The translations under genes were made by a program, and so were the position numbers. Of a DNA stretch of 64,000 nucleotides, positions 17,540-40,868 are shown in pieces. Source of the DNA: Candidatus Omnitrophota bacterium (lineage in GTDB: Bacteria; Omnitrophota; Gorgyraeia; B26-G9); NCBI GenBank assembly GCA_043826565.1, contig JBDRPX010000008.1, forward strand, positions 17,744 to 81,743. Direction: 5' to 3'. The number at the start of each line of letters is the position of its first letter. Positions within the stretch are counted from its first letter, which is position 1. The notes beneath the pieces were generated by a model. That model saw only the letters and a program-made list of their open reading frames with translations. It had not been told where the DNA came from and did no database searches.

Positions 17540-17563
17540 AGACAAGCATTACCAGAGCTCAAA

Positions 17564-17595
17564 AGCCCTCTCTGATCTAGAGAGGGCTTTTTTTA
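17564..17595 (+). terminator. rho-independent terminator (bidirectional) after cytochrome c
   Basis: AGCCCTCTCT gatct AGAGAGGGCT + TTTTTTT; A tract upstream. Confidence 0.65.
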
Positions 17596-17630
17596 GGTTC
17601 TTTCTTGTTTAAAGAATGACCCTTAATATT
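17594..17630. repeat. partial inverted copy of the 161-bp structured repeat (ends only)
   Basis: AGGTTCTTTCTTGTTTAA + AGAATGACCC = reverse complements of the 3' and 5' ends of repeats at 38397 and 40471. Confidence 0.4.
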
Positions 17631-18459
17631 TATTTTGAAAAAAATCTTCAAACGCGTGGCTGTGTATCTTTATATCCCGGAAATACTTTTGCGCTGATTT
17701 TTGGATATTGGTTTTCAGCCCGATAACTGTCTTTCCATAAAATTCCCGGTCTTTACCCAAACGCTCATAAACCTTAACATACTCCGGATAAACCTGCTTT
17801 ATAAGCTTAATTATATTCGGTATCCCCGCCATTTTAAAATTCATTATTTCAAATTCCGCCTTTTCTACTCCCGGCATCTTCTCCGCCGCATGAGGAAACT
17901 CAAATAACTCCGGCATAACCGGACAAAAATAAGCAATTACCGGAATATTGTTTTTCGCCAGAAGATTAGCTGTTTTAACACTATCTTCTACAGAAACAGC
18001 ATACGGCTCAAAGCACTCCCTTATTTTTCCCGGCAATGTATCAATAGTAAAGTATATAGCTTCACAATTTCCCTCCCCCAGCAAAGATATATACTCACAA
18101 ACTAATAGAGAACGCGTAAGAATTATATACTTAATCTTCCTCTGATTAAGCAGTTTTAAAACCGCCTCGGTGACCCCATACTTTTTTTCCGCGGCTTGAA
18201 AACATTCCGTAGTTGAACCGAGTAATACTTTCTCCGGATTTTTCTCGTCTAATTCCCGCTCTAAAACTTCTAAAGCATTAATTTTTACTTTTACGTATTG
18301 TCCCCAGGGAAGTTCCTCTTTAAGCGCCTTTTTGCTGAACTGCGCGTAGCAAAACAAACATCCCATCTGACAACCCTGGTAAGGATTTATCACATAAGGA
18401 GCGAGATTAATCCCGGTAGGCCTAAGGATTGTGGTTATTTTCTGTTCGATTATTTTCAT
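17623..18459 (-). CDS. radical SAM protein, DNA photolyase / spore-photoproduct-lyase-like family
   Basis: CQMGCLFC CxxxCxxC motif near N-terminus; start taken at MKIIEQK (ORF track start 18510 would overlap intI by 89 nt). Confidence 0.6.
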   Translation of the reverse strand: MKIIEQKITTILRPTGINLAPYVINPYQGCQMGCLFCYAQFSKKALKEELPWGQYVKVKINALEVLERELDEKNPEKVLLGSTTECFQAAEKKYGVTEAVLKLLNQRKIKYIILTRSLLVCEYISLLGEGNCEAIYFTIDTLPGKIRECFEPYAVSVEDSVKTANLLAKNNIPVIAYFCPVMPELFEFPHAAEKMPGVEKAEFEIMNFKMAGIPNIIKLIKQVYPEYVKVYERLGKDREFYGKTVIGLKTNIQKSAQKYFRDIKIHSHAFEDFFQNKY

Positions 18460-27452: not shown

Positions 27453-28106
27453 ATGCCTTTTTCTGAAAAAATTAAATCAGAGGTAAAAGAAAAAGCAGCT
27501 TATCAATGTTGTGTCTGTCGCAAAATAGGTACTGTTGAAGTCCACCATATAATACCACAAGAGTTTGGGGGCCCCGACACAATTGAGAATGCTGCACCGC
27601 TATGTCCGAACTGTCATACTGATTTTGGAGATAATCCTAAAAAGCGCAAAGCAATAACGGAAATGCGAGACTGGTGGTATAAAAAATGCGAAACTATGTT
27701 TCCAAAACCAGATTTAGAGATATTAAAGAATATAAATTCAAAATTAGAAAACATACAAGAACACCAAGAAAACGTAGTTGAATTAAAAGAAATATTGAAG
27801 AATTTTTCAAATAAAACAATTGATATGATCTCTGTTGACACAGCAAATGCTTCTGCTTCTGCAATTGTTCGTTCCGTCAGTGCAATTAGAATAGACCCAG
27901 TGGTATATCCGACCCCATTAGAAAATTCGCTATACTGTGTTAATGAATATAAGATACATTATTGTATATACTGTGGTTTTGGTTATAAGGTTGTTAATAA
28001 CAATGCAGCATATACACTTGCTTTAAGTCCAGTAAGTGGTATTGAAATTGAATGCCCTAAATGCAAACAAAAAGAACTTCATAAATCATTTCATGACATT
28101 ACATAA
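27453..28106 (+). CDS. cassette 10: HNH endonuclease family protein with C-terminal zinc ribbon
   Basis: 217 aa; CCVCR..VEVHHIIPQEFGG..NAAPLCPNCH HNH motif; C-terminal CIYC..CPKC. Confidence 0.65.
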   Translation: MPFSEKIKSEVKEKAAYQCCVCRKIGTVEVHHIIPQEFGGPDTIENAAPLCPNCHTDFGDNPKKRKAITEMRDWWYKKCETMFPKPDLEILKNINSKLENIQEHQENVVELKEILKNFSNKTIDMISVDTANASASAIVRSVSAIRIDPVVYPTPLENSLYCVNEYKIHYCIYCGFGYKVVNNNAAYTLALSPVSGIEIECPKCKQKELHKSFHDIT

Positions 28107-28177
28107 CAAATCTATTCACCTAACTGGTGGGTGCCCGGATTTGGGCTCAACCCAGTAGGTGATATTTATGTTATAGA
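28102..28177 (+). other. attC10 (family A variant)
   Basis: R'' CATAAC 28102-28107 overlapping stop; R' GTTATAG 28170-28176. Confidence 0.6.
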
Positions 28178-28185
28178 AATAAAAA

Positions 28186-28720
28186 ATGCCAAAATTAATA
28201 ACCAGAAAACAAATTCGAGTAAAAAATTATGATTATTCATTAAATGGGTATTATTTTGTAACCATTTGTTCGAAAAATAGAAAAATTATATTTGGCGAAT
28301 ATATTGAACATACCGTAGGGACAGCCCTTGCGGCTGTCCGAAACAATATTAAATTAACCAGATTAGGAAATATTATCGAAAAACAATGGATCGATATACC
28401 AAACCAATACAATAACATTACATTAGATGAATATATAATCATGCCTAACCATTTGCATGGCATTATAATTATTAATAAACGGACAGGGGCAAGCCCTGTC
28501 CCTACGATATCAAATTATTCGTTCTTTTAAATCAAAATCTACTCTGGAATACGTAAAATATATCAATGATAATAACCTGAATATTTCGGGTAAAATCTGG
28601 CAACGATTATTTTATGACCATATTATCCGAAACCAGAAATCTTTAGACGCAATTAGAAAATACATTGCAACCAATCCCGAAAACTGGGAAAATGATATTG
28701 ATAATTTAATTAATCTATAA
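28186..28720 (+). pseudogene. cassette 11: REP-associated tyrosine transposase (RAYT / IS200-like Y1 HuH), frameshifted
   Basis: Frame 1 28186-28530 gives YDYSLNGYYFVTICS..MPNHLHGIIIIN (HuH); the C-terminal part IIRSFKSKS..KIWQRLFYDHIIRNQ..NPENW continues in frame 2 (from ~28514 to stop 28718-28720), implying a single-base frameshift near 28505-28513. Confidence 0.6.
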
Positions 28721-28798
28721 CAATTCGCTCCAGGGCAATCGGAACCCGCCCCGAAAAAGACCGGGTCGGAACCCTCCCAGTGATTTCGGGCGTTATAT
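28716..28798 (+). other. attC11 (family C variant)
   Basis: R'' TATAAC 28716-28721 overlapping stop; GCAATCGGAACCC..GGGTCGGAACCC; R' GTTATAT 28792-28798. Confidence 0.55.
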
Positions 28799-28820
28799 AT
28801 AAATAAAAAAGGAGAGAAAA

Positions 28821-28970
28821 ATGGATGCGGGAATAATGGGGATGTTAGGTGTTATTGTGGCGATGGTTGGTGTGATTCTCGGAACAGCTATTAATATTGG
28901 TAGATCTATTCAAGAAATCAATAACCGATTAATCGCGATAGAAAAAACCATAAAGGAAAATAAAAAGTAA
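28821..28970 (+). CDS. cassette 12a: 49-aa single-TM peptide
   Basis: ORF below track cutoff; RBS AAGGAGAG 7 nt upstream; MDAGIMGMLGVIVAMVGVILGTAINIGRSIQEINNRLIAIEKTIKENKK. Confidence 0.35.
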   Translation: MDAGIMGMLGVIVAMVGVILGTAINIGRSIQEINNRLIAIEKTIKENKK

Positions 28971-29016
28971 TTAAATAAAATTATCAAATAATATTTAACA
29001 AAAAAAGGAGGGTTTT

Positions 29017-29532
29017 ATGAAAAATTTAAGTTTCTTGAACAGAAGAAAATTGGTGGTAGTATTAATGTCGGTAGCGTTCATGGTAACTATCGCGGGGCTG
29101 GTTCCAGAGTCAACTTTTGCTAAAGAGAAAAAAATAGACAATAAAATAGAGACGCAGGTAGACTTCCATATACTTGTCGTAAAGGTGGTTAGAGGTATCA
29201 ATCAAAGAGTAATCGGTAAGGTATGGTTTAGTGGCGGTACCTATGAGAATGATGGACTGAAAATTGATGGTGAAGGAAAAGTATTTATTAATGAAGCTGA
29301 TTTTGGATTTCAATTACCCACAAACAAGGCCTTAATATCTGCCGATGTTATGTTATCATCAAATAATGAGATCGAGAGTGGAACTGTCTTAGGTAGCATG
29401 AGCGGTGTTACGATAACTGAACAAGGAGTTACCCCTGGCGGGGATAGGTGGCTGAATGGAGTAGGCAGTTTTAATGGAGAGTTTATAGCAGCTCCTCTCA
29501 CTGCGGGGATATCAGGAACAACTGATAGATAA
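29017..29532 (+). CDS. cassette 12b: secreted hypothetical protein (signal peptide)
   Basis: 171 aa; RBS AAAGGAGGG; N-terminal signal-like hydrophobic segment. Confidence 0.5.
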   Translation: MKNLSFLNRRKLVVVLMSVAFMVTIAGLVPESTFAKEKKIDNKIETQVDFHILVVKVVRGINQRVIGKVWFSGGTYENDGLKIDGEGKVFINEADFGFQLPTNKALISADVMLSSNNEIESGTVLGSMSGVTITEQGVTPGGDRWLNGVGSFNGEFIAAPLTAGISGTTDR

Positions 29533-29554
29533 CTTGTTGGTTATTTTTTTAAAA

Positions 29555-29586
29555 CCCGCAGGATGTAGTTGTCCTGCGGGTTTTTT
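29555..29586 (+). terminator. rho-independent terminator inside cassette 12
   Basis: CCCGCAGGA tgtagttg TCCTGCGGG + TTTTTT. Confidence 0.65.
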
Positions 29587-29619
29587 GCAAAAATAGAAAA
29601 TAAAAAGGAGGAAAAGTCT

Positions 29620-30012
29620 ATGAGTGAAATCAATAATGAATCAAAAGAAATTAGCACAGGTTCCCCTAAGCGTTTTTATATAATATTTTCTATAGCAATA
29701 CTGGTGGCTTTAATTACAACATATGGGGTGTTCGTGGCGGAAAGAGTACAAGTAAATCAGGAATTTAAACAGAAATCGGGCCGTTTACTGGAAGAACTAT
29801 CTAGCCAAATGGAAAACAACCCAGGCATGATGTACTACGATGACTCGGCCAATGATTTTAATACGCAAACTGAAGATCTTTTTAAAGAAAGAAGTGCTAA
29901 GTTGAGCAACATTAAGTTTAAAGGAAAAATATTTTTAGGCACCTTATTAATGGTATCTATCGTAGGGGTGTTGCTATCATTTGTTTGCAGAAACAATAGG
30001 GTCAGGCACTGA
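29620..30012 (+). CDS. cassette 12c: membrane-anchored hypothetical protein
   Basis: 130 aa from ATG 29620 with RBS AAAAGGAGGAAAAG; two TM helices (N- and C-terminal). Confidence 0.45.
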   Translation: MSEINNESKEISTGSPKRFYIIFSIAILVALITTYGVFVAERVQVNQEFKQKSGRLLEELSSQMENNPGMMYYDDSANDFNTQTEDLFKERSAKLSNIKFKGKIFLGTLLMVSIVGVLLSFVCRNNRVRH

Positions 30013-30127
30013 AAGCTGAAAACAGCGAAAATAACAGAGTCAAACCCGGCCTGTCCCGCTACTTTGCCCCCTTCCCTTCTCCGGCAGAGTTGTGGTATCA
30101 TAGAATAAAGAAAACAAAATAAAAATC

Positions 30128-30204
30128 TATAACCATTTTATCCACCTGACCCTACCCAGCCCCAAAATGGGCCGGGCTCGGGCAGGTGATGTCAGTGTTA
30201 TCAA
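30128..30204 (+). other. attC12 (family B), last attC of array
   Basis: R'' TATAAC 30128-30133; CCACCTGACCC..GGGCAGGTG palindrome; R' GTTATCA 30197-30203. Confidence 0.6.
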
Positions 30205-30229
30205 AGCAACCTCAGAACAAACACCCCTT

Positions 30230-37086: not shown

Positions 37087-38139
37087 TTATGTTTTATTTA
37101 CATACAGCGTCTGTGTCGGATAAGCAAACTCAATACTTCTTTTTGCAAATTCCTGCATGATTTTAAGATTGATCTCCTGCTGTATATCCATATACTTATT
37201 ATAATCCGCTCCGATAACATAATATACTATTTCAATTTTCAGAGCAAAATCACCGTACGCGGAAAAATGCGCCCGATCAAATTTAGCATCACTAATTCCA
37301 TTAATAATACTCTTAATAATCCCAGGGATTTCTTTTACCTGCGCCTGAGTAGTCTGATAAGTAACCCCCAGAGAAAAAACAACCCGGCGCTGCTCCATTC
37401 TTTTGTAATTACGTACCCGGGAATTCGTTAGATCAGTATTGGAAAAAATCAACTGCTCTCCCCCCAGACTGCGAATCCGCGTGGTCTTAATCCCGATATT
37501 TTCCACCGCCCCCATATAATCACCGATAATAATAAAATCACCGATCTCAAAAGGCCGGTCAAACATAATCGAGAAAAAGCTGAACAGATCCCCCAAAACT
37601 GCCTGCGCAGCCAAAGCAACGGCAATACCTCCGATCCCTAACCCGGCAATAACCGCGGAAACATTAAAACCCATATTATCCAGGAGAAAAACAATACCGA
37701 CTCCCCAGACAACTATTCTAACCACAAGCAGAAGGCCTTTAAGGCTGCGTTCCCTGGCTTCATTTTTTTCTTTTCCCAGTAAAAAAGGCAGCATAATAAA
37801 ATTCATAAATGATATCAATGTCCGTATTGCCACTATTGTTAAAATAAAAGCTCCCAGGAGATTAATACCTTTTTTTAATGATTCGGGTAAAACCAGTCCT
37901 TGAATACCTATATATAGAGCCCCGAAATACAAAAGCGGCATAATTCCCCGCTGCAGTAAACGTACCGCGAAATCATCCGCCATGGTCGCGGTCTTTTTCG
38001 CCCAGGTTTTTAAACGAGTAATAATAATTTTTTTTATTAATAAAAGCGCCAGAATCCCCAGGATAAAACTCCCCAAACAAATCAGATAATCTAAAACCCG
38101 ATTACCCAGAATCATTTTTTGTAAAATATCTAAATTCAT
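37087..38139 (-). CDS. mechanosensitive ion channel (MscS family)
   Basis: 350 aa; TM helices followed by MscS beta-domain (GDFIIIGDYMGAVENIGIKTTRIR). Confidence 0.8.
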   Translation of the reverse strand: MNLDILQKMILGNRVLDYLICLGSFILGILALLLIKKIIITRLKTWAKKTATMADDFAVRLLQRGIMPLLYFGALYIGIQGLVLPESLKKGINLLGAFILTIVAIRTLISFMNFIMLPFLLGKEKNEARERSLKGLLLVVRIVVWGVGIVFLLDNMGFNVSAVIAGLGIGGIAVALAAQAVLGDLFSFFSIMFDRPFEIGDFIIIGDYMGAVENIGIKTTRIRSLGGEQLIFSNTDLTNSRVRNYKRMEQRRVVFSLGVTYQTTQAQVKEIPGIIKSIINGISDAKFDRAHFSAYGDFALKIEIVYYVIGADYNKYMDIQQEINLKIMQEFAKRSIEFAYPTQTLYVNKT

Positions 38140-38396
38140 AACTCTCTCCTTACCATAGACTTCTTAAGATAGTTGGCCTTAAGATCCTATTTTACTATTT
38201 TATAATATGTTATGTCATGTTCTTTTCTATGTCAAGCAATTATGAGCTTCTGCCATCTATTTACCATCATTACAGAGATATATCTATATAACATATTACA
38301 AAATAAGAAGTTACCACCCCTAGGTTCCTCGGCGCTTTTGCTTGTAAAAATTCCGGGATATGATATACTTTATTGATTTTGAGGTTTCTTTAATAT

Positions 38397-38558
38397 GGGT
38401 CATTCTTATTTAGGTTCAAAATTAAAGAATGTCCTTGATTACAATGATTTAGAAGCAGATTACAGCGATTGTCTACGTTTGATAGGAAATGAATCTGTGT
38501 AATCGTATTTAATCTGTGAAATCAGGTTCTTTTATTCAGCTTAAACAAGAAAGAACCT
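38397..38558 (+). repeat. 161-bp structured direct repeat, copy 1
   Basis: ~90% identical to 40471-40631; three internal hairpins (GGGTCATTCTT..AAGAATGTCC; GATTACA..TGTAATC; AGGTTCTTT-17nt-AAAGAACCT). Confidence 0.6.
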
Positions 38559-38584
38559 TAATATTGTTTAATTCGCGGTGAAAA

Positions 38585-40465
38585 ATGAATATATTTAAAA
38601 CAAATACGCTCAAGAATATCTGCTATATTAGCTGCCTGCTTACAATTATAGCCGCGGCTCTATTATGCCCTGCAGCTGCTGTCTGCTTTGCCAAAAATGT
38701 AGAAATACCAAACACGCTTTCCCCTAAGGTTCAGATAAAAGATGACGGCCTTGCCGAAGCATTTAACGAGTTCGTCAGTTCACAATCACTTCTTGGAAAA
38801 GTTTCCTTACCGGCAAAATGTATCCCCATGAAAAGTGTGCGTGAATACGGAGTAAAGATAAATAATGTGTCGACAAACTTTAAAATCGGAAAATATAACT
38901 TCAGAGTCCCCCCATATATTGCTGATCGCGTATATCGTGTTCACATCACCGACATTGATGCTGATAAGCTTACCTTTCAAAAAATGGGAATCGGTGTCGG
39001 ACAAAGACGCCCGACAAAAGCCGTTGTCCTGGCAGATTCCAAACATCCGAAAAACCAACTACTGATCTTTGATGACGGACAAACCATAAAAATAACCCGC
39101 TTAGGCGCTCCCGGATTTGTGGAAACCGTAAATTTCGGAGCCCAAGCACAGTTTAATGAAATGTCCCGCCAGGATTCTTTTTTGGAAAGAACAACACTCG
39201 GCAGCGCCTTTTTAGACGAAGTATTCGGTCTTAGCCAAGAAAGTAAGCCCCGGGCAGGAGATATTGTAAAAGCTTTAACAGAATTAGCGAAAAGCAATCC
39301 GAAACTAAAAAAACCGCTTCCGATTACACTGGCTTTCTTCTCCCAGGATTATATATTAACTTTTTCCCGGGAACTAATAAAATATTCCTCTGTATCAGTG
39401 CTGCGCGACCGGGAACAACGGGGCCGGTTCATAGCTATTGTCGATGAATTAAATCCGGAAAATTTCGTTGTTTTTGAACGCCGGGGAGAAAAAGTCGTTC
39501 TTTTGGGAAATAACGAACAAGCAATCATCGGACAACTAGTAAAAAAAGAAACCTCCGAGAATTTTTATTTTTCAGATTATACAGAAAGCGCGAAATTCTG
39601 CCGCACTGTTTCCCGGGAATTAGTCACCTACTCTCCCACAAAATCAGCCAGCAGTTTCAGCGTTAGAAAAGGCCTGCAATTACACGTCGGAGTAGATAAT
39701 CAGGATATTGGAATTCTTAAGGTGCATCAGGTAACCCAGGCAACAACAAGCGGACAGCAGATAAAACACCGTCCCCCGACAGAAACCGAGTCATTAATCT
39801 GGGAATCTTATCCTCTATATATCTTAGATGAGGATTTTCCCCAAGTATTGCCAATGGAAACCACCCCTATCCGCTGGGGAAACCCGGAATTTTTAACATT
39901 CCCTGTAGAAACACAGAAAGAATGGCCGGATTTCTTAAACCACAGCATATCCGGAGAAAATAGGTATTACCAAAAAATTGAGGGAATATATTTACGCAAA
40001 GGCAAAAAATACACTGTCTATAAATTTATCCGCCGGCAGGATGTTATCACGAAGATCATCTTTAATCAAGACGGGACTTTTAATATTAGCGGAATAACCT
40101 GGAACAACGGTATTCCGGTTGCCTTTAGAAATATCTCTCAGATATCTTTGCCATCACTGATAACCCAGTTAAATTCCAGCCGGTATATTGATATTGATCC
40201 CCAGCTAGCCGCACGCTTTGAATTAGGCGCTTTAATCGGCACACCTATTCGCGCGGTATATTCATTTAAGGATGGGGTGTTTGAACAGTCCGGGACCCTT
40301 CACTTAGATTCTTTAGATGACTTTGCCGGCTGGCAGCGAACAGAAGATGCTACAATTGCTCAAAGCCGCTGGCTAACCGAACAGGATATGCCCAGCAGCC
40401 TGGAATTGTTTGGACAAAGAATAAGGATGACTATTCCGCGCAATCTTGTAGAACAGGCAATCTAA
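38585..40465 (+). CDS. secreted hypothetical protein (626 aa)
   Basis: signal peptide MNIFKTNTLKNICYISCLLTIIAAALLCPAAAVCFA; no recognised domain; flanked by the 161-bp repeats. Confidence 0.5.
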   Translation: MNIFKTNTLKNICYISCLLTIIAAALLCPAAAVCFAKNVEIPNTLSPKVQIKDDGLAEAFNEFVSSQSLLGKVSLPAKCIPMKSVREYGVKINNVSTNFKIGKYNFRVPPYIADRVYRVHITDIDADKLTFQKMGIGVGQRRPTKAVVLADSKHPKNQLLIFDDGQTIKITRLGAPGFVETVNFGAQAQFNEMSRQDSFLERTTLGSAFLDEVFGLSQESKPRAGDIVKALTELAKSNPKLKKPLPITLAFFSQDYILTFSRELIKYSSVSVLRDREQRGRFIAIVDELNPENFVVFERRGEKVVLLGNNEQAIIGQLVKKETSENFYFSDYTESAKFCRTVSRELVTYSPTKSASSFSVRKGLQLHVGVDNQDIGILKVHQVTQATTSGQQIKHRPPTETESLIWESYPLYILDEDFPQVLPMETTPIRWGNPEFLTFPVETQKEWPDFLNHSISGENRYYQKIEGIYLRKGKKYTVYKFIRRQDVITKIIFNQDGTFNISGITWNNGIPVAFRNISQISLPSLITQLNSSRYIDIDPQLAARFELGALIGTPIRAVYSFKDGVFEQSGTLHLDSLDDFAGWQRTEDATIAQSRWLTEQDMPSSLELFGQRIRMTIPRNLVEQAI

Positions 40466-40470
40466 CTTAT

Positions 40471-40631
40471 GGGGCATTCTTTAGATTGAAAAATTAAAGA
40501 ATGCCCCTGATTACAATGATTTAGAAGCAGATTACAGCGATTGTCTACGTTTGATAAAAAATGAATCTGTGTAATCGTATTTTAATCTGTGAAATCAGGT
40601 TCTTTTATTCAACTTAAACAAGAAAGAACCT
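40471..40631 (+). repeat. 161-bp structured direct repeat, copy 2
   Basis: perfect hairpin GGGGCATTCTTTA-11nt-TAAAGAATGCCCC plus the two other hairpins as in copy 1. Confidence 0.6.
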
Positions 40632-40634
40632 AAC

Positions 40635-40847
40635 TTATTGCGGCTTTTTGAAAAAATCTTCAGAGATATATTTGGGGATATTCTTTAGATAAGAAAAAAA
40701 TCTATCCCATTCCAGATCATGCTTATAATTTGTTATCCGGGTAGACCCTCTTTTGGTTACCTCTTTAGTTATTACCCAGGTGCCGCTTTTTAAAAAAACA
40801 TAACCAAAAAAAATAACAACAATTAAAAAATATATTAATTTTTTCAT
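40635..40847 (-). CDS. small membrane protein, hypothetical
   Basis: 70 aa ORF with N-terminal TM helix. Confidence 0.3.
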   Translation of the reverse strand: MKKLIYFLIVVIFFGYVFLKSGTWVITKEVTKRGSTRITNYKHDLEWDRFFSYLKNIPKYISEDFFKKPQ

Positions 40848-40868
40848 ATCTACGCCGCTGGGAATTGG

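Follow-up and report, generated by a model that had tools for sequence, protein, structure and literature searches.

Analysis of a 64,000-nucleotide stretch of a Candidatus Omnitrophota genome (GenBank assembly GCA_043826565.1, contig JBDRPX010000008.1, positions 17,744 to 81,743, forward strand; here called the window) revealed a pair of non-coding direct repeats of 160 to 161 bp on either side of a gene for a 626-amino-acid (aa) protein. These repeats very probably belong to a family of non-autonomous DNA transposons, i.e., MITEs (miniature transposable elements with inverted repeats), that has spread through a clade of Candidatus Omnitrophota. The assignment is based on the small size of the elements, the absence of coding capacity, the terminal inverted repeats, the site-specific duplications of fixed length at the insertion points, and the dispersed intergenic copies. 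The family is previously undescribed in Omnitrophota and represents an ordinary kind of selfish DNA rather than a new type of RNA or a gene-mobilizing system.

The arrangement described in the first-pass annotation of this DNA, two direct repeat copies around one coding sequence, was confirmed. The copies (38397-38557 and 40471-40630) bracket the open reading frame (ORF) 38585-40465, are identical in 150 of 163 aligned columns (92%), and share no similarity beyond the element ends. This repeat pair is far above chance: a 34-mer core occurs twice in the window versus 0 expected, and the 18-mer right end occurs three times versus 0.18 expected. The window copies have no coding capacity, with a longest stop-free stretch of 37 to 41 aa. 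A hidden Markov model (HMM) of the family found no window copy beyond those already known, which are as follows.

38397..38557, plus strand: MITE copy 1, 161 bp (family HMM 118.5 bits, E = 1e-34)
38397-38434, plus strand: module A of copy 1, a degraded hairpin
38435-38524, plus strand: module B of copy 1, GATTACA-type subterminal inverted repeats
38525-38557, plus strand: module C of copy 1, right terminal repeat hairpin
40471..40630, plus strand: MITE copy 2, 160 bp (family HMM 125.9 bits, E = 5e-37)
40471-40507, plus strand: hairpin A of copy 2, a 13-bp perfect stem
40508-40597, plus strand: module B of copy 2
40598-40630, plus strand: hairpin C and right terminal repeat of copy 2
17596..17622, minus strand: 27-nt relic, 10 to 13 nt of the left end joined to 15 to 18 nt of the right end; GGGTCATTCTTTAAACAAGAAAGAACC

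The same genome is also covered by an independent Logan assembly (SRR26275510; a 9.8-kb contig, L062), which is 100% identical to the window over 5465 nt and ends 69 nt inside copy 1 (its positions 1-69 correspond to 38465-38397); a contig break at this place is expected of a multi-copy repeat. Here and below, L-numbers (L003, L004, and so on to L063) label loci from other genomes or assemblies that were compared with the window.

Alignment of full-length members (L033, L020, L004, and L023) revealed an ancestral, non-coding element of about 200 bp, relative to which the window copies are without 40 bp of the A loop. The element consists of three modules: a left hairpin (A), a long quasi-palindrome of GATTACAnnGATT units (B), and a right hairpin (C). 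The GATTACAnnGATT repeats are inverted and subterminal, and module B carries four GATTA-type half-sites per side at a spacing of 9 to 12 nt. The terminal inverted repeats are imperfect and about 20 nt long (GGKTCWTTCTT...AAGAAAGAACC), with the consensus GGTTC(A/T)TTCTT(A/G)(A/T)TTAAGTT. The left end reads (A/G)GG(T/G)(T)CATTCTT... and the right end ...AAGAAAGAACC (reverse complement GGTTCTTTCTTGTTTAAGTTGAA); an autonomous partner with the same ends would be bounded by GGTTCTTTCTTGT...ACAAGAAAGAACC. Alignment of the terminal repeats gave scores of 11 to 12 in the five best-preserved copies versus shuffle means of 3 to 4 (standard deviation of about 1.6); the repeats are weaker in the decayed copies L020, L045, and L046. 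A resemblance of MscS codons 5 to 16 (38092-38126) to module B is attributed to chance, since this coding sequence is conserved in relatives.

Target-site duplications were scored in 13 full-length elements: both window copies, L005, L011, L021, L023, L032, L033, L020, the two elements of L004, L045, and L046. The comparison of flanks allowed a boundary slack of one position in either direction, for true and mismatched pairs alike. The 8-bp duplications matched in 8/8 positions in eight elements, in 7/8 in four, and in 6/8 in one (n = 13). Among mismatched flank pairs, 1/126 reached 8/8 and 10/126 reached 7/8. The duplications are AT-rich, and their sequence is unlike at each independent insertion site.

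38390..38396: left duplication of copy 1, TTAATAT
38558..38564: right duplication of copy 1, TTAATAT; the start codon ATG 38585 follows 20 nt downstream
40463..40470: left duplication of copy 2, TAACTTAT; bases 1 to 3 form the stop codon of the 626-aa coding sequence
40631..40638: right duplication of copy 2, TAACTTAT; orf70, a small ORF on the minus strand, has its stop codon at 40635-40637
L005: TTGTTATT
L011: CTTTTTTT
L021: TTTTAATG
L023: TAAAATAA
L032: TTTAATAC
L004, minus-strand copy: TTATTTTT
L004, plus-strand copy: AAATAATA
L033, L020, and L046: 7/8 each
L045: 6/8

Taken as an 8-mer, the duplication of copy 1 matches in 7/8 positions (TTTAATAT versus CTTAATAT or TTAATATT), and that of copy 2 in 8/8. 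The outer flanks of the window pair match in only 4/8. Since each copy has its own duplication and the outer flanks differ, the two window copies were inserted independently.

The distribution of the family was determined by an exact 18-mer scan of GTDB species representatives, after which the family HMM was run on the loci found. The scan returned 40 loci, of which 19 extend into the element, 18 of them in seven metagenome-assembled genomes (MAGs) labeled Omnitrophota and one in a MAG labeled Planctomycetia. The other 21 loci hold the bare k-mer without extension into the element, as do all 15 of the 17-mer matches found in a scan of viral contigs (0/15 extend). The HMM added copies without the exact 18-mer in L004, L021, and L023. 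The 13 members with scored duplications span the window and at least eight other MAGs, all but one labeled Omnitrophota. Counts based on a single exact 18-mer seed and the HMM are 3 copies in the 64-kb window, at least 8 on seven contigs of JAZDHG01, and at least 6 on four contigs of JAGLQQ01. A metagenome scan with the C-hairpin pattern returned three loci: one has the same sequence as L020, and the other two are L004 orthologues. A BLASTN search of the element against the PLSDB plasmids gave no match, and no description of a MITE from Omnitrophota was found in the literature searched. The elements are intergenic throughout, except in L003, where an ORF overlaps the element end by 36 nt. A MITE-like mobile element had been one of the two possibilities raised in the first-pass annotation; the further copies in relatives (the 19 extending loci), the terminal inverted repeats, and the 8-bp duplications that differ from site to site bear it out.

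The members range from 91 to 213 bp and show the module combinations ABC, AC, and BC, down to the 27-nt relic. L005, L011, and L032 are without the left half of B, and L021 is without any B, as are L045 and L046, which are also without the right arm of A. Two sets of orthologous sites were available for comparison. At the first, L004 carries a 194-bp ABC element and L045/L046 a 91-bp element; the internal gap is 103 bp, and the flanks are well conserved. At the second, the 117-bp element of L021 corresponds to a bare right-end remnant in L015. These comparisons show that the module variants are internal deletions that arose in place.

The relic at 17596-17622 corresponds to a third, junction-like copy that had been noted at about position 17594. 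Directly joined repeat ends were indeed seen there (17595-17622, minus strand), as the reverse complements of the two element ends, GGGTCATTCT followed immediately by TTAAACAAGAAAGAACC. The relic abuts the stop codon of a radical-SAM gene and has no recognizable duplication (5/8). It is best read as an internally deleted element, not as a circle junction or an empty site, since the orthologous sites show such deletions arising in place. Because its two ends can pair, slippage across the base of the structure would be the favored route. The same kind of end-to-end junction had been reported before copy 1 (38381-38400) and was not recovered: this stretch, AGGTTTCTTT, is unlike the junction at 17595 and consists of a 10-mer that resembles the right end only with an indel, after which come the target-site duplication and the forward-oriented left end.

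Further sequence features were seen next to these elements. At 17561-17591, between the convergent cytochrome c and radical-SAM genes, the relic is adjoined by a strong hairpin that is terminator-like: its stem measures 14 bp, with an A-run on one side and a T-run on the other; judged from its symmetry, it could act in both directions. A 17- to 18-mer, TTTTGAAAAAA(A)TCTTCA, is shared by 17631-17652 and 40645-40665. It sits 10 to 14 nt outside the element end at both the relic and copy 2 and in both places encodes ...EDFF near the C terminus of a minus-strand ORF. The sharing is possibly due to chance; the similarity extends no further. Derivation of orf70 from a fragment of the radical-SAM gene or of MscS was considered and rejected because the protein similarity is insignificant (E = 0.63) and amounts to the shared 17-mer. 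In other genomes, L004 4300-4900 and L019 7700-7965 are intergenic clusters of several element copies in both orientations, in which a different hairpin module (CCCCGTTAGAGAA...TTCTCTAACGGGG) is fused to B/C modules. These clusters suggest further repeat families or nested insertions.

The search for a partner transposase compared the element ends with those of known insertion sequences. Members of the ISL3 family listed in PMC6305408 have 8-bp duplications and 24-nt inverted repeats that start with GG; for ISArsp7, a member of this family, the inverted repeat is GGCTCTTCGCGGTTGGTGGTGAAT and the duplication is 8 bp (Table 3 of PMC6305408). The right end of the element matches the left inverted repeat of ISArsp7 in 15/24 ungapped positions (GGnTCTT...GTT...G.TGAA), a score reached in 6/5000 shuffles and better than that with the Tn3, IS30, and IS6 comparators. 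Against a second ISL3 member, ISPst2, the right end scored at chance level (10 to 11/24). Both the Omnitrophota family and ISL3 elements combine an 8-bp duplication with inverted repeats of about 24 nt and a GG start, whereas the MITE has no transposase gene, and no Omnitrophota ISL3 partner was found. The duplication length and the similarity to ISArsp7 weakly suggest an ISL3-like transposase as the partner, which is a lead and not an assignment to that family.

Two other transposase sources were considered and rejected. The IS6/IS26 family has two known MITEs, conserved cTGTt and caaa motifs, and inverted repeats of 15 to 20 nt (PMC7986276). The Omnitrophota elements resemble this family in the 8-bp duplication, the GG tips, and the direct repeats around passenger genes and differ from it in that the cTGTt and caaa motifs are absent from their ends. 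The ends scored 6 to 11/24 against those of IS26 and IS257, which is chance level. An IS6-derived MITE was dismissed because the internal motifs are absent, the GG tip and the 8-bp duplication notwithstanding. The IS110-family transposase encoded in the window was dismissed as the mobilizer as well. The IS110 (DEDD/RNA-guided) family is not known to make 8-bp duplications or to carry terminal repeats of this kind, and the gene sits inside an integron attC site.

Several observations weigh against a MITE family. An autonomous element with the same ends was not found, and no pair of ends lies more than 500 bp apart except the window pair. No transposase was detected in loci L001-L046, an IS26-like transposase probe against these loci was negative, and the only transposase of the window is of the IS110 type. 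The link to ISL3 comes from one of eight comparators and is marginal after multiple comparisons. The duplication of copy 1 is perfect over 7 bp only or, over 8 bp, contains one change. In L010, L019, L006, L012, L025, and L003, only the right end is present, and therefore no duplication could be scored there. The family is not abundant, as the metagenome scan added just three loci. Among the orthologous sites, no empty site was seen; all are filled or hold deletion remnants. Since no presence/absence polymorphism was recovered, movement is inferred from the duplications.

The proposal that the repeats form a structured RNA family, the second possibility of the first-pass annotation, was examined by folding. 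In this explanation, the three hairpins are the functional unit of a non-coding RNA or untranslated region (UTR) element, e.g., an mRNA-stabilizing or regulatory leader or trailer, and the copies are kept for their RNA function. The minimum-free-energy fold of copy 2 indeed consists of three hairpins at -51.5 kcal/mol, far below shuffled sequences (z = -7.1), and the plus strand folds better than the minus strand (-41.4 kcal/mol, z = -5.2). The three hairpins described earlier are confirmed for copy 2; the best fold of copy 1 (z = -3.3) lacks hairpin 1 and pairs the element ends together. Pairing in hairpin 1 had also been thought to survive the differences between the copies, which was not confirmed: hairpin 1 of copy 1 is damaged and not compensated, with T:T in place of G:C at pair 4, G:T at pair 1, and an insertion of 3 nt. 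RNAalifold analysis of six copies from five genomes recovered a three-hairpin consensus with a covariation term of +4.23; compensatory changes affect only 2/45 pairs, and pairing is broken at several positions. Covariation is nearly absent. Rfam was searched across the window at the gathering threshold and across 38300-40750 at E ≤ 1, in neither case with a match. With respect to position, about 10 of the 14 scorable elements are oriented as a flanking gene and 4 are opposite; 5 to 6 copies lie 21 to 32 nt upstream of start codons and one lies 17 nt upstream of a tRNA, which speaks for an RNA element. Against this stand the elements that are antisense to both neighbors (L004, L005, L006/L035, and L017) and others between convergent genes. 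Moreover, many members keep the right half of module B without the left half, so that the B stem cannot form in them, and an RNA gene leaves the site-specific 8-bp duplications unexplained. An RNA family in its own right is accordingly improbable; a secondary, co-opted role of the element as a UTR structure may exist. Two functional readings of the modules were tried and rejected. The C module is not supported as a promoter (-35/-10), since no sigma-70-like site was found inside the copies and the candidate -35 lies in the variable loop; no IHF site was detected inside the window copies either. A terminator role is not supported, since nothing at the copies was called terminator-like and only some half of the members have a T-run after them.

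The surroundings of the window copies comprise the following features.

38342..38369, plus strand: sigma-70-like promoter match, TTGTAA-16-TATACT with an upstream TG; consensus match only
38585..40465, plus strand: enclosed coding sequence, 626 aa, with a signal-peptide-like N terminus and no Pfam domain; context, not part of the element
40635..40847, minus strand: orf70, small ORF with a hydrophobic N terminus, convergent with the 626-aa coding sequence

The promoter match at 38342-38369 is the only sigma-70-like match facing the 626-aa gene, and the region holds no more matches than shuffled sequence. Copy 1 ends 27 nt upstream of the ATG at 38585 and, being downstream of this match, is probably transcribed as part of the 5' UTR if the promoter is used. 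The pre-insertion target of copy 2, TAACTTAT, held the TAA stop codons of the 626-aa gene and, on the other strand, of orf70. Both stops were preserved by the duplication, and the landing site of copy 2 was therefore neutral. The 626-aa protein and the adjacent MscS show 100% identity to proteins of a Candidatus Omnitrophota MAG (locus tag ABII88_02765). The 626-aa protein belongs to an Omnitrophota-specific family; the homologues listed are 576 to 917 aa long, most of them 780 to 917 aa, and show 42 to 46% identity. Alignment with the 917-aa protein P0009 ends at residue 584/626 of the window protein and residue 581/917 of P0009. Homologues in L041 and L043 lie in operons with very large hypothetical proteins (621 to 3538 aa), none of which is in the window. 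The window copy is without the C-terminal approximately 300 aa and without all operon partners, and no paralogues of the gene or of its operon partners were found in the window. In the divergent spacer between MscS and the 626-aa gene, 38196-38213 and 38288-38305 form an 18-nt inverted repeat (94% complementary, 74 nt apart) that overlaps several promoter-like matches and could be a regulatory site.

The odd position of the 626-aa gene raises the explanation that the repeats and the gene form a composite unit or segmental duplication, in which the copies and the gene arrived together or copy 2 is a local duplicate of copy 1. The gene is outside its usual operon context. In the closest relative (GCA_024231215.1; L063 7584-8010, MscS 72% identical), PilZ and MscS are 9 nt apart, versus a 2.7-kb interval in the window (38140-40868) that holds orf70, the 626-aa gene, both MITEs, and a 257-bp spacer. 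In addition, it is typical of IS6-type elements to lie as direct repeats on either side of passenger genes (PMC7986276). However, insertion as a unit predicts matching outer flanks and no match between the flanks of each single copy, and the opposite was found (4/8 versus 7/8 and 8/8). The copies also differ by 8%, and no similarity continues past the element ends. The relatives of the window locus have MscS at most 72% identical and are not syntenic upstream of MscS, where five relatives have five different neighbors; the region is therefore a general synteny breakpoint, and no MITE-mediated event is needed for the position of the gene. A composite origin is thus very unlikely. The presence of an integron in the window suggests yet another explanation, namely, that the copies are attC sites at the two borders of a gene cassette. 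In its favor, an integron integrase and an attC-bounded array reaching to about 30.2 kb are present in the window, and attC sites, as imperfect palindromes, occur in direct orientation on both sides of single genes. The element ends (GGGKCATTC..., ...AAGAAAGAACC) nevertheless are without the RYYYAAC/GTTRRRY cores present in every attC of the array; the 8-bp duplications are of a kind that integron recombination does not make; the family HMM gives no match in the array; and the copies lie 8 kb past the last attC. The probability of this explanation is close to nil.

The integron itself is chromosomal and occupies 18422-30210. Its integrase gene (18422-19747, minus strand) matches TIGR02249 at 412 bits versus a cut-off of 265. 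The cassette ORFs are small and on the plus strand; at least 12 of them lie in a low-GC stretch (0.32 to 0.35), with the array extending from 20.5 to 30.2 kb. Downstream of most cassette ORFs is a spacer of about 70 to 115 bp that holds an attC-like imperfect palindrome with RYYYAAC...GTTRRRY bounds. Five of the attC sites form a 98-nt family with 61 to 86% identity. One cassette encodes an HNH endonuclease (27453-28106). The IS110-family (DEDD, "RNA-guided") transposase gene (24959-26050, minus strand) lies inside a split attC (24442-26190), with the left core ATCTAAC near 24446 and the remainder near 26120-26190. This insertion resembles those of the attC-targeting IS1111 subgroup.

The Omnitrophota MITE family can be compared with two well-known kinds of repeats. 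The archetypal bacterial MITEs are the Correia repeat-enclosed elements (CREE) of Neisseria, and the BOX elements of Streptococcus pneumoniae have the modular structure boxA-boxB(n)-boxC (both PMC10969869). With CREE, the Omnitrophota elements share a length of 100 to 200 bp, the lack of coding sequence, terminal inverted repeats, an intergenic location often just upstream of genes, hairpins that are co-transcribed (here probably so), and size classes that arise by internal deletion. They differ in having no sequence similarity to CREE and in their host, which belongs to a different, uncultured phylum. Correia elements duplicate a TA dinucleotide, versus 8 bp in the Omnitrophota family. The likeness to BOX consists of the variable module content (ABC, AC, BC), the stable predicted structure, and the clustering or nesting with other repeats (L004 4300-4900). 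The sequences are unrelated, the variants here are deletion derivatives of one element of about 200 bp and not variable numbers of repeat modules, and the Omnitrophota element has clear terminal repeats and 8-bp duplications. For BOX and for REP-BIME, the likeness is limited to architecture (modules and hairpins), and the scan of window proteins revealed no Y1 (RAYT) gene.

Under a MITE origin, a DDE-type transposase encoded elsewhere would bind both element ends, cut an AT-rich target with an 8-bp stagger, and insert the element, and repair of the gaps would give the 8-bp duplication. The inserted copies decay in place by internal deletion, which leaves smaller and smaller sets of modules, with the 27-nt relic as the extreme case. 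In the window, copy 1 landed 20 to 27 nt upstream of the 626-aa gene's start codon, which probably placed it in the 5' UTR, and copy 2 landed independently in the 8-bp target that held the stop codons of both convergent genes. Two copies around one gene thus reflect two separate insertions into the AT-rich spacers on either side. It is a reasonable reading of the sequence that the 160-bp direct homology could delete the enclosed gene by recombination, and the hairpins, if co-transcribed, would act as UTR structures. Larger roles are unlikely, be it that the element is a co-opted binding platform or UTR structure that spreads a common regulatory input to nearby Omnitrophota genes or that direct MITE pairs are handles for excising or moving single orphan genes.

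Bacterial MITEs have been little studied (PMC10969869), and Omnitrophota is an uncultured phylum known almost only from MAGs. No general concept is changed by this MITE family. As a defined family with a consensus, terminal repeats, and an 8-bp duplication, it explains contig breaks in these MAGs and provides a marker for strain-level comparison and for locating its transposase. The family also flags genes whose 5' or 3' UTRs hold a large hairpin cassette.

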